From: a virus
Lineage: Duplodnaviria > Heunggongvirae > Uroviricota > Caudoviricetes
Virus record (IMG/VR): IMGVR_UViG_2675903569_000005
Length of the DNA stretch: 12,944 nt
Direction: 5' to 3' (one strand)
How positions within the stretch are numbered: position 1 is the first letter of the stretch; every line of letters begins with the position of its first letter. This document shows, piece by piece, positions 1 through 8,882 of the stretch. The notes under the pieces are model-generated. The model was not told the DNA's origin. It did not search any database and was given only the letters and a program-made list of their open reading frames with translations. The position numbers were made by a program, and so were the translations under genes.

Positions 1-228
1 CAGGATATTGTCCAGGTCGCGACGACGCTTATCCGGTGGCTCTGCAATCACCTTTATCGCCAGCCTTCCGGACAGGTTTAATTTCAGCCGCTGCTGGCGA
101 ACAATTAGCGCCACATCACGGCGATAACGCTTTCCGGCCTCCGAGATGAAATACGTATTGCCATGACGTCGCCAGTAGGTATTCACCGTCGGCGGGTAAG
201 GCAAAACAAATTCTATGCGTTCAGTCAT
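1..228 (-). CDS. rusA: Holliday junction resolvase RusA, N-terminal 76 codons; gene continues past the window start
   Basis: Minus-strand translation from ATG at 228 gives MTERIEFVLPYPPTVNTYWRRHGNTYFISEAGKRYRRDVALIVRQQRLKLNLSGRLAIKVIAEPPDKRRRDLDNIL, matching recalled RusA motifs (LPxPP near the N-terminus, PDRRRRDLDN). Not in the ORF track because it is truncated by the window edge. The start abuts the stop of the upstream gene (TGA then ATG). Confidence 0.8.
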   Translation of the reverse strand, partial: MTERIEFVLPYPPTVNTYWRRHGNTYFISEAGKRYRRDVALIVRQQRLKLNLSGRLAIKVIAEPPDKRRRDLDNIL

Positions 229-1728: not shown

Positions 1729-1884
1729 TTACTCCTCAGGTTCGTAAGCTGTGAAGACAGCGACCTCCGTCTGGCCGGTTCGGATTCGTACCTCGCAGAG
1801 GTCTTTCCTCGTTACCAGTGCCGTCACTATGACGGTTAAACAGATGACGATCAGGGCGATTAACATCGCCTTTTGCTGCTTCAT
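1729..1884 (-). CDS. hokD: Hok-family type I toxin (HokD/RelF-like), 51 aa
   Basis: Internal ATG at 1884 of the 70-aa track ORF gives MKQQKAMLIALIVICLTVIVTALVTRKDLCEVRIRTGQTEVAVFTAYEPEE, which matches my recollection of E. coli HokD throughout. AAGGAG lies 9 nt upstream of this ATG. Confidence 0.85.
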   Translation of the reverse strand: MKQQKAMLIALIVICLTVIVTALVTRKDLCEVRIRTGQTEVAVFTAYEPEE

Positions 1885-2143
1885 AGCCTGCTTCTCCTTG
1901 CCTTTCGGCACGTAAGAGGCTAACCTAGATTTGCCGTTCATAGATTGAGCCTCAGATTAATGTTAAGCGTCTTGCAGGACGCGTAATGTTAACTGGGGCT
2001 TTTCTCTATCTGCCTTTTGGTGTTCATGCCTGAGACAGATAGCCTCAAGCACCCGCAGTCATTCTACTTAACTAAGATTTCCCCGCAAACCGTTTTTGTC
2101 CGGCACAGTAAATATCCAACTAAACCAATGGCGTTCGCTGTAT

Positions 2144-2323: not shown

Positions 2324-2552
2324 TATTCCTCCTACAATCAATGTGCAATTACATTTAAACACACCTCAATTTGGCCGGACATATAAATATCTAAACCAGA
2401 AAAAATCACTTACATAGCGTTACAAACTCTTTAGTCTAAATATTCATCGTAAAACATTCCCCATACTTATCAGCCCGTTCTGCGCCAGGTAGCTCATTGC
2501 CTTATCTGGGAATCTGTAATCAGGTTTCCAGATGCTGGTGGATTTTCGCGTT

Positions 2553-2810
2553 TTAGTTGTTCATAAAAGTGCACAGCTTTAACCAGTTCTTCTGATGTAA
2601 CCGGGACTGGCGGGGCAGTGAATAAGGCCTGAATTTCATAGTTCGGCCTGTCGTTACAATCCTCTTTTTTCGGTACATATTTCCAGTCACCAGACCACTA
2701 CTTCCCCTGAAAGTCCGTAACGCCTTTTTTTTCACGTAGCGATATCGCCATGCCACTGTTTTTGCTTGCCCCGCCGTTTCATGCCCTTCCTGATAATTAA
2801 CCTCGCTCAT
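2553..2810 (-). CDS. Hypothetical ORF, 85 aa in frame 1, with probable frame discontinuity; a start-less -1 frame stays open to 2494
   Basis: ATG at 2810 overlaps the stop of the upstream 58-aa gene (ATGA). The -1 frame is open from 2697 to a TGA at 2494..2496 and looks more protein-like (EDCNDRPNYEIQALFTAPPVPVTSEELVKAVHFYEQLKRENPPASGNLITDSQIRQ) but has no start codon. A8 and A6 homopolymers and an A-AAA-AAG heptamer sit at the frame junction. Confidence 0.35.
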   Translation of the reverse strand: MSEVNYQEGHETAGQAKTVAWRYRYVKKKALRTFRGSSGLVTGNMYRKKRIVTTGRTMKFRPYSLPRQSRLHQKNWLKLCTFMNN

Positions 2811-2983
2811 TCATCGCCCCACTCATCACAATATGCTTCGACCGGAGTTTTTCCTGCTTCATAATCATCACGCCATGCTTCAGCATCAGCAGCACTGCCA
2901 CCACGTAACTCTGCATAGTCCATTAACAGTTCATGCCATTCTTCAAAACTGACGTTGTATTTAGTTGAACCAAAATCAGCCAT
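2807..2983 (-). CDS. Small highly acidic protein, 58 aa; unknown function
   Basis: Not in the track (below 60 aa). Hand translation from ATG 2983: MADFGSTKYNVSFEEWHELLMDYAELRGGSAADAEAWRDDYEAGKTPVEAYCDEWGDE. Start overlaps the stop of the upstream 60-aa gene (ATGGCTGA) and its stop overlaps the next start (ATGA). 16 D/E against 4 K/R. Confidence 0.5.
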   Translation of the reverse strand: MADFGSTKYNVSFEEWHELLMDYAELRGGSAADAEAWRDDYEAGKTPVEAYCDEWGDE

Positions 2984-3158
2984 TTTGTTCTTCCTCTTCG
3001 TCTTTTATTTCGTGATATGAGTAATTGCAGTAGTTAAAGAAAATATCTTTTGCTTCGTCATGTATTTCATCAGGCGTCGCACCATCATCCACTTCGAATT
3101 CATCCTCGAAATCTCCACCGGCTATTCCCGTTTCAATAATTATTTTAAACTTTCGCAT
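2976..3158 (-). CDS. Small highly acidic protein, 60 aa; unknown function
   Basis: Track ORF MRKFKIIIETGIAGGDFEDEFEVDDGATPDEIHDEAKDIFFNYCNYSYHEIKDEEEEQNG, 19 D/E against 5 K/R. Translationally coupled to the 58-aa gene. Upstream is an AGGAGG followed by a GC hairpin and then the ATG. Confidence 0.5.
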   Translation of the reverse strand: MRKFKIIIETGIAGGDFEDEFEVDDGATPDEIHDEAKDIFFNYCNYSYHEIKDEEEEQNG

Positions 3159-7801: not shown

Positions 7802-7854
7802 TTTCTGGTGACGTTTGGCGGTATCAGTTTTACTCCGTGACTGCTCTGCCGCCC
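7802..7854 (+). ncRNA. dicF: DicF small RNA (ftsZ-targeting sRNA of the dicB operon)
   Basis: TTTCTGGTGACGTTTGGCGGTATCAGTTTTACTCCGTGACTGCTCTGCCGCCC followed by TTTTT matches my recollection of the 53-nt DicF sequence, and it lies between ydfC and dicB as in Qin. Confidence 0.8.
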
Positions 7855-8028
7855 TTTTTAAAGTGAATTTTGTGATGTGGTGAATGCGGCTGAGCGCACG
7901 CGGAACAGTTAAAACCAAAAACAGTGTTATGGGTGGATTCTCTGTATCCGGCGTTAATTGTTAACTGGTTAACGTCACCTGGAGGCACCAGGCACCGCAT
8001 CACAAAACTCATTGTTGAGGGCGCGATA

Positions 8029-8217
8029 ATGAAAACGTTATTACCAAACGTTAATACGTCTGAAGGTTGTTTTGAAATTGGTGTCACTATCAGTAATCCT
8101 GTATTTACTGAAGAGGCCATTAACAAAAGAAAACACGAACGGGAGTTATTAAATAAAGTATGCATTGTTTCAATGCTGGCCCGTTTACGTCTGATGCCAA
8201 AAGGATGTGCACAATGA
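8029..8217 (+). CDS. dicB: Cell division inhibitor DicB, 62 aa
   Basis: ATG 8029 with GAGG upstream gives MKTLLPNVNTSEGCFEIGVTISNPVFTEEAINKRKHERELLNKVCIVSMLARLRLMPKGCAQ, matching recalled DicB. The track ORF carries an upstream in-frame extension. Confidence 0.85.
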   Translation: MKTLLPNVNTSEGCFEIGVTISNPVFTEEAINKRKHERELLNKVCIVSMLARLRLMPKGCAQ

Positions 8218-8405
8218 ATCCAGCATTTGCGCTTGTTCTGACGGTTTTTCTTGTTTCCGGAGAGCCAGTTGATATTGCAGTCAGTGTTCACAGAACAATG
8301 CAGGAATGTATGGCAGCAGCAACCGAACAGAAAATTCCCGGTAACTGTTACCCGGTCGATAAAGTTATTCACCAGGATAATATCGAAACCCCGGCAGGTC
8401 TTTAA
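8214..8405 (+). CDS. ydfD: YdfD-like small protein, 63 aa
   Basis: ATG 8214 overlaps the dicB stop (ATGA). Product MNPAFALVLTVFLVSGEPVDIAVSVHRTMQECMAAATEQKIPGNCYPVDKVIHQDNIETPAGL. Confidence 0.8.
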   Translation: MNPAFALVLTVFLVSGEPVDIAVSVHRTMQECMAAATEQKIPGNCYPVDKVIHQDNIETPAGL

Positions 8406-8477
8406 AACAGTTCCGTAATAAATATCCGGTTTCATTCTTATATGCCAGCAATGGCAGGGATTTGTTCNNNNNNNNNN

Positions 8478-8519
8478 ATTTGGCGGTATCAGTTTTACTC
8501 CGTGACTGCTCTGCCGCCC
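8478..8519 (+). ncRNA. dicF: Second DicF copy; 5' end hidden in the N-run
   Basis: ATTTGGCGGTATCAGTTTTACTCCGTGACTGCTCTGCCGCCC plus TTTTT is identical to the 3' 41 nt of copy 1 including the terminator. The 5' 11-12 nt fall in or next to the gap. Confidence 0.55.
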
Positions 8520-8693
8520 TTTTTAAAGTGAATTTTGTGATGCGGTGAATGCGGCTAAGCGCACGCGGAACAGTTAAAACCAAAAACAGTGTTATGGGTG
8601 GATTCTCTGTATCCGGCGTTAATTGTTAACTGGTTAACGTCACCTGGAGGCACCAGGCACCGCATCACAAAATTCATTGTTGAGGACGCGATA

Positions 8694-8882
8694 ATGGAAA
8701 CGTTATTACCAAACGTTAATACGTCTGAAGGTTGTTTTGAAATTGGTGTCACTATCAGTAACCCTGTATTTACTGAAGATGCCATTAACAAGAGAAAACA
8801 CGAACGGGAGTTATTAAATAAAATATGCATTCTTTCAATGCTGGCCCGTTTACGTCCGATACAAAAAGGATGTGCACAATGA
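8694..8882 (+). CDS. dicB: DicB paralog (copy 2), 62 aa, diverged
   Basis: METLLPNVNTSEGCFEIGVTISNPVFTEDAINKRKHERELLNKICILSMLARLRPIQKGCAQ. Differs from copy 1 at K2E, E28D, V44I, V47L and in the C-terminal LRLMPK to LRPIQK. Confidence 0.75.
   Translation: METLLPNVNTSEGCFEIGVTISNPVFTEDAINKRKHERELLNKICILSMLARLRPIQKGCAQ

Follow-up and report, generated by a model that had tools for sequence, protein, structure and literature searches.

An in-phase A_AAA_AAG heptamer in a probable decaying phrog_660-family gene of an Escherichia coli lambdoid prophage

When an A_AAA_AAG heptamer lies between an open reading frame and a startless frame at -1 to it, does it mark a programmed frameshift or a broken gene? 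The question is raised by the minus strand of a 12,944-nucleotide stretch of a caudoviricete genome (IMG/VR record IMGVR_UViG_2675903569_000005; hereafter the window, meaning the whole stretch analysed), in which an earlier note, made from the letters alone, had proposed a -1 frameshift and had held a homopolymer sequencing error or a real pseudogene to be equally possible. Judging from sequence comparison, we consider that 2810..2444 is very probably a decaying pseudogene of a small accessory gene of the phrog_660 family, within the nin-like part of an E. coli lambdoid prophage (Qin/Rac type). The pseudogene alternative thus comes out as the right one, the intact homologs having an A6 tract and a sense codon in place of a TAG.

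Reading frames of the locus and their family

The minus-strand ORF 2810..2553 has 85 codons (85 aa), and its start ATG shares an ATGA with the stop of the gene upstream, at 2983..2807 (overlap sequence GAATGAGC), which bears out the described coupling to a gene for an acidic protein. Three-frame translation from 2810 gives MSEVNYQEGHETAGQAKTVAWRYRYVKKK in frame 0, followed past codon 28 by a strongly basic tail (ALRTFRGSSGLVTGNMYRKKRIVTTGR...; pI ~12) with zero matches among the PHROG families, in agreement with its description as garbage-like. The -1 frame, which indeed has no start codon, reads WSGDWKYVPKKEDCNDRPNYEIQALFTAPPVPVTSEELVKAVHFYEQLKRENPPASGNLITDSQIRQ up to its stop (67 codons, 2697..2494, the length and end that the earlier note had given), and it is this frame that the phrog_660 hidden Markov model matches (E 1.2e-16). 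The features of the locus are:

2807..2983, minus strand: upstream acidic gene, intact, 58 aa, phrog_519, pI 4.05; its TGA overlaps the ATG of the pseudogene
2444..2810, minus strand: whole relic of the phrog_660-family gene, with the ATG at one end and the out-of-frame C-terminal remnant at the other (from alignment with loci L002 and L003 and from PGAP flags)
2727..2810, minus strand: native N-terminal 28 codons (MSEVNYQEGHETAGQAKTVAWRYRYVKK), with the ATGA-coupled start; AWRYRYVKK is invariant in the alignment
2725..2732, minus strand: A8 homopolymer, the real frame break; A6 (AAA AAA, Lys-Lys) in intact alleles, hence a +2 expansion
2553..2726, minus strand: out-of-frame tail of the 85-aa ORF, ALRTFRGSSGLV...CTFMNN and stop, a junk reading
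2698..2700, minus strand: TAG nonsense codon at native codon 37; CAG, CCG or CTG in intact relatives
2494..2697, minus strand: startless native-frame continuation, WSGDWKYVPKKEDCNDRPNYEIQALF...NLITDSQIRQ and stop
2664..2670, minus strand: AAAAAAG heptamer, minus-strand offset 140..146 (0-based); frame 0 reads CGA AAA AAG, that is A_AAA_AAG
2625..2649, minus strand: weak hairpin AGGCCGAA(N8)UUCAGGCCU, -8.1 kcal/mol, 14-nt spacer after the heptamer
2521..2550, minus strand: junctions (alignment gap columns) where older deletions have taken out two segments that the 171-aa form carries, one of 90 bp (in frame) and one of 61 bp (out of frame)
2444..2524, minus strand: C-terminal remnant PDYRFPDKAMSYLAQNGLISMGNVLR and stop, the original C-terminus, in the third frame
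Frame-0 peptide of the 85-aa ORF, minus strand: GSSGLVTGNMYR
Native-frame peptide of the pseudogene, minus strand: EDCNDRPNYEIQALFTAPPVPVTSEELVK

Intact homologs of 104 to 171 aa, all assigned to phrog_660, are found in other E. coli prophages. Two of them, WP_001289993.1 (171 aa, L002) and WP_001529162.1 (104 aa, L003), are each encoded by one continuous reading frame, with the protein MSEINYQEGHETAGQAKPVAWRYRYVKK[D/G]VTDFQ[GKP/ENL]W[A/V]GDWKYVPTKEDCNDRPNYEIQALF..., and the pattern of the intact family, AWRYRYVKK-G-VTDFQ-K-Q/P/L-W-GDWKYVP-T/K-KEDCNDRPNYEIQALF, likewise lies entirely in one frame. The model of the family is matched both by the -1-frame segment of the window and by the intact 171-aa homolog (E 2.4e-74), the window copy differing in being truncated and interrupted. 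A search of ~5.8 billion clustered proteins found 1,615 relatives; the best 120 of these are, where named, from E. coli or Shigella and carry diverse N- or C-terminal modules, some of them ead/Ea22-like or DUF551. The core is kept in a single frame in all 17 aligned cluster representatives, with AWRYRYVKK invariant and W38, D41, W42, K43, Y44, V45, P46, K48, E49, N52 to P55 and I59 to F63 conserved in at least 90% of them. A Pfam scan gave nothing for the 171-aa homolog, the 85-aa ORF or the upstream 58-aa gene, its sole match being DUF7167 in a neighbouring 60-aa gene; a PDB profile search returned only designed helical repeats (E 0.02 or worse) and no related solved structure, and an AlphaFold2 model of the 171-aa homolog from a 30-sequence alignment (mean pLDDT 51.6, pTM 0.32) was too poor for use.

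Lesions and the allele series

Three observations identify the locus as a pseudogene: 1) the same residues lie in one uninterrupted frame in L002, L003 and the 17 cluster representatives; 2) the lesions that separate the window from the intact form can be named (A6 to A8, the TAG and the 61-bp deletion); 3) sister alleles have gathered further independent lesions. DNA alignment and measurement of the tract place the first lesion at GTG-A8-GG in the window against GTG-A6-G in intact genes. The true junction of frame 0 and the -1 frame is therefore this A8 tract, which precedes the heptamer by 55 nt, and the native frame is in addition closed by the TAG that lies between the two. At that codon L002 and L003 have CCG or CTG, and the intact relatives P0063 and P0130 have Q (KQW); because other intact representatives carry Q there, the TAG at 2700..2698 is likely to go back to one transition, CAG to TAG. 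Compared with the 171-aa form, the window lacks segments of 90 bp and 61 bp, the latter by an out-of-frame deletion near 2530, and as a result the original C-terminus is stranded in the third frame. Comparison of the window with L002 also reveals that the 90-bp in-frame deletion is flanked by near-identical direct repeats, AATCC(G/A)CCAG, which suggests that a slipped-strand or short-homology deletion removed this segment.

A 421-nt query of the locus hit 2,073 of the 5,426 complete E. coli genomes (2,102 records), along with several induced phages. Twelve alleles were read, of which ten are pseudogene alleles (the window and nine fetched loci), and they fall into these classes:

Intact (L002, L003): A6 tract, codon 37 sense (CCG/CTG), second site ACAAAAG
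Pseudogene (L001, L007 from E. coli W, L008, L010): A6 tract, TAG, second site AAAAAAG
Pseudogene (L004, L009, L011): A7 tract, TAG, second site AAAAAAG
Pseudogene (window, L005, L006): A8 tract, TAG, second site AAAAAAG

The TAG is thus present in 10/10 pseudogene alleles examined, at any length of the A-tract; since it is found with A6, A7 and A8 alike, it is independent of tract length, and it is more widely spread than A8. Exact matches in the complete genomes amount to at most 426 records for the A6+TAG 65-mer, at most 59 for the A7+TAG 66-mer and at most 337 for the A8+TAG 67-mer, all of them upper bounds whose identity band may take in a few partial matches. The fetched A8 alleles are at least 99.5% identical and have diverged little. 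Elsewhere the decay has gone further, L011 having a second stop (TAG-TGA), L008 a further two 1-bp deletions, and the A6 lineage additional stops downstream; such independent further lesions fit relaxed constraint. Near-identical RefSeq copies, including L004, L005, L006, L007 and L009, are flagged by PGAP as 'frameshifted; internal stop', so that the locus is already known as a pseudogene through RefSeq annotation. With other prophage pseudogenes flagged in this way it has in common the pairing of a point nonsense mutation with an indel in a homopolymer; there is no substantive difference, and the window is one allele (A8+TAG) of the series.

The distribution of the lesions among the alleles points to an order of events, which we infer to have been as follows. 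The 90-bp in-frame and 61-bp out-of-frame deletions would first have removed or shifted the C-terminal module; a C-to-T change would then have made a TAG of native codon 37, formerly CAG; and in a gene already dead the Lys-Lys A6 tract would have drifted to A7 and then A8, presumably by replication slippage. A nonsense mutation first and homopolymer drift afterwards is the simplest history, because the TAG is independent of tract length and has spread more widely than A8. Translation would still begin, thanks to the coupling of the ATG with the gene upstream, and would give an 85-aa peptide that over its last 57 residues is junk read out of frame. The biological weight of the locus is small: it is one more decaying accessory gene of a lambdoid prophage.

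The heptamer, the hairpin and the 105-aa product

A challenge to the pseudogene reading comes from the heptamer. By programmed or compensatory -1 frameshifting, ribosomes shifted at A8 would pass the TAG out of frame, slip at A_AAA_AAG with the help of the hairpin and produce a functional 105-aa protein, and all that the earlier note had described in the sequence is accurate. The heptamer is at 2670..2664 and in phase in frame 0; a -1 slip there does join the two parts into a conceptual product of 105 aa, which matches phrog_660 (E 1.3e-23); and a GC stem does lie about 14 nt downstream, at 2649..2625, where the minimum-free-energy fold contains it. In the A8 alleles examined, moreover, the native frame downstream is intact, being open as far as the stop that also ends the intact 104-aa allele, and fusions of the two frames at the DNA level exist (see below). 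A_AAA_AAG also ranks among the most shift-prone heptamers of E. coli when stimulated (PMC4066793; PMC5009743).

Against this, no homolog has a conserved two-frame architecture, and neither that layout nor the heptamer is conserved among the homologs, the intact ones being single-frame. An uninterrupted frame in homologs was what the earlier note itself had named as speaking against frameshifting, and it is what the comparison found, with an upstream tract of A6 in the intact genes. In the native frame the heptamer reads CCG AAA AAA GAG, plain Lys-Lys; PKKE is also encoded in the intact P0130 and P0133, where AAAAAAG is in a non-slip phase, and L002 and L003 carry ACAAAAG at the site. The heptamer is older than A8, being present in A6+TAG alleles as well, and an X_XXY_YYZ heptamer in phase with the translated frame 0 occurs only in the A8 alleles, that is in one of the three tract-length classes, because translation there has been moved by +2 at the upstream A8 tract. 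Those A6 alleles that lack extra indels keep the native non-slip phase and close frame 0 at the TAG after 36 residues; frame 0 of the A7 alleles ends at codon 41, short of the heptamer. The native Lys-Lys AAAAAAG would thus have been thrown into the A_AAA_AAG phase by accident of the +2 shift.

The stimulators fare no better. Where a programmed site would have a stable stem-loop or a pseudoknot, some 5 to 9 nt past the heptamer, there is none; the only hairpin starts 14 nt downstream, and the 81-nt context of heptamer and hairpin does not stand out from its shuffles in folding stability (z = -0.28), so that there is no case for the stem as a stimulator, the role in which the earlier note had cast it. 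The hairpin is conserved because it sits within the codons of the conserved DRPNYEIQALF. The 20 nt upstream of the heptamer (GTGACTGGAAATATGTACCG) contain no Shine-Dalgarno-like, GGAGG- or AGGGAG-like element. A slip at the heptamer would furthermore yield a product in which 20 core residues, GVTDFQGKQWSGDWKYVP, seven of them near-invariant, are replaced by ALRTFRGSSGLVTGNMYR.

The comparison with known frameshift sites leads to the same result, and the proposed dnaX- or IS3-like mechanism finds no support. As in dnaX, where A_AAA_AAG is accompanied by a Shine-Dalgarno-like element and a stem-loop, the window has the identical heptamer, correctly phased and with a hairpin downstream. It differs in lacking the upstream element, in a two-frame layout that is not conserved in homologs, and in the position and strength of the hairpin (14 nt away and -8.1 kcal/mol, against -19.7 kcal/mol for the dnaX downstream sequence under the identical folding procedure); the spacing from heptamer to stem in dnaX is about 6 nt. 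IS3/IS911 orfA-orfB is similar in that an A_AAA_AAG-type heptamer links an upstream ORF with a startless -1 ORF; the locus in the window, however, has neither a transposase nor inverted repeats, it lacks a conserved orfA/orfB overlap, and its '-1 ORF' is the native frame of a single-frame gene. Unstimulated heptamers in E. coli reporters reach 2 to 10 times a background of ~0.055%, slippage well under 1% (PMC4066793). A small fraction of ribosomes may slip -1 at 2670..2664, as at any such heptamer in E. coli, and this low-level slippage is probably incidental and meaningless, not programmed. We therefore regard a functional frameshift here as very unlikely.

A variant of this idea takes the +2 expansion itself as a cure. 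In G-run mutants of the herpes simplex virus thymidine kinase, a 'savior indel' with low-level compensatory frameshifting has been described (PMC5009743), and the geometry of the window (+2 indel, TAG out of frame, in-phase A_AAA_AAG) suits a savior indel with compensatory slippage exactly, which counts against the pseudogene reading. A8 would then allow the TAG to be read as sense, and a low-level -1 slip at A_AAA_AAG would supply a trickle of 105-aa protein, which strikes us as highly improbable. We hold out only a slim chance that such a protein, keeping the N-terminal AWRYRYVKK and the C-terminal EDCNDRPNYEIQALF..., is made for this reason. As in the viral case, the nearest analogy of interest, a homopolymer indel kills the gene and full-length product could come back in trace amounts through a shift-prone run; the differences are that the compensating site in the window is a separate run 55 nt downstream, that 20 conserved core residues are replaced in its product, and that the independent TAG shows the gene to have been dead already. 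Nothing at the locus requires a rescue of the savior type; if true, it would be a natural case from bacteria in which an out-of-frame detour gets round a nonsense codon.

With the conceptual fusion as query, natural ORFs of 105 aa were recovered on the A8+TAG background, in each of which a +1 insertion joins the two frames again at a site of its own (loci L013 1501..1818, L014 to L017 and L018 to L021):

P0121: +T at the equivalent of ~2695; assembly GCA_054890285.1, L013 1501..1818
P0122: +A at the equivalent of ~2644; 10 contigs
P0129: +A at the equivalent of ~2589; 14 contigs

A fourth, P0123, from one Logan contig of the A6/TAG lineage, encodes the chimeric junction that the slip proposed in the earlier note would give (YRKK-EDCND) and, lineage differences apart, the product of that slip. 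These fused ORFs could reflect selection to regain the C-terminal part, and P0121, P0122 and P0129 might be the same rescue at the level of DNA, an interpretation to which we attach little likelihood. As evidence of selection they are weak, the search having been able to recover fused ORFs only (an ascertainment bias). Both P0122 and P0129 trace to a single SRA project (SRR337687xx to SRR337694xx), in which the contigs bear other single-base insertions that cut DUF977 from 140 to 66 aa and alter the lengths of neighbouring ORFs; the fusing insertions may be errors or the mark of a hypermutable background.

The decaying gene remains our preferred reading, and it carries a caution: a perfect in-phase heptamer of the dnaX type, with a hairpin and a homologous startless -1 frame, can be a mere by-product of a homopolymer indel farther upstream, and such cases are settled by comparison with intact homologs and not by inspection of the motif alone.

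Remaining alternatives and the prophage context

The polymorphism of the tract in the population (A6, A7, A8) would also be expected of a phase-variable or contingency gene, whose expression would be turned on and off by slippage of the A-tract. However, the TAG lies downstream of the tract in all ten polymorphic alleles examined, so that no tract length gives an ON state, and the intact alleles examined have A6; tracts of six to eight A are, besides, short for an efficient contingency tract. We deem this extremely improbable, and exceedingly unlikely too is the proposal that the 85-aa frame-0 ORF is a new functional gene for a basic peptide born by the frameshift. The latter can appeal to the translational coupling to the upstream gene and to the annotation of a hypothetical protein in the phage record ON470612, but the tail has no family match, the 85-aa ORF is confined to the A8 class (A7 ending at codon 41 and A6 without extra indels at the TAG), and RefSeq PGAP omits the ORF and marks a pseudogene instead. 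That the window has a homopolymer sequencing or assembly error over a true A6 or A9 tract in an intact gene, as the earlier note had suggested of the nearby A8 (rightly singling out a tract that is the true junction), has next to no chance of being correct: homopolymer runs are prone to errors and other assemblies have A7 and A6 variants, but up to 337 complete genomes, the work of many laboratories and with FDAARGOS reference assemblies among them, contain the exact A8+TAG 67-mer, and the in-frame TAG nine codons downstream survives any correction of the tract. Transcriptional slippage at A8 was likewise considered and rejected, an A9 transcript regaining the native frame only to meet the TAG nine codons on.

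As regards the surroundings of the decaying gene, the window is a Qin/Rac-type lambdoid prophage adjoining ompW. In the annotated counterpart L006 the order of genes is antiterminator, RusA, DUF968, hokD and then the pseudogene, followed by the 58-aa gene, DUF7167, a 118-aa gene, DUF977, the replisome organizer, a YdaT-like protein and Cro, and finally the repressor, ydfC, dicB, exonuclease, excisionase and integrase. By this order, the pseudogene has its place in the stretch of small, dispensable genes that separates the replication module from the late-control one. The neighbouring DUF7167 gene (equivalent to window 2976..3158) is itself a pseudogene with an internal stop in the A6+TAG lineage (L001 1203..1385, L007 49..231, L010 49..231), where, E. 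coli W included, the 58-aa gene has no annotation; in this lineage decay extends beyond the pseudogene ORF over the entire cluster of small genes.

Several further features of the region were observed. In the induced phage ON470612.1 the 85-aa frame-0 ORF was deposited as a 'hypothetical protein' (22712..22969; L012 651..908), and the label 'hornerin' on a minus-strand ORF close by has the look of annotation noise. A sok antitoxin RNA (Rfam RF01794, 112 bits; 1879..2054, minus strand) adjoins the hokD-type toxin gene directly downstream of the pseudogene. On the plus strand, 7803..8778 contains a tandem duplication with a 665-bp period, in which 300-nt repeats (7814..8113 and 8479..8778) are 98% identical. 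The duplication yields two copies of the DicF small RNA, one full (7803..7854, 76.7 bits) and one without the first 10 positions of the model (8478..8519, 55.6 bits). The best-matching genome may be without this duplication, since it is ~540 bp shorter across the window.
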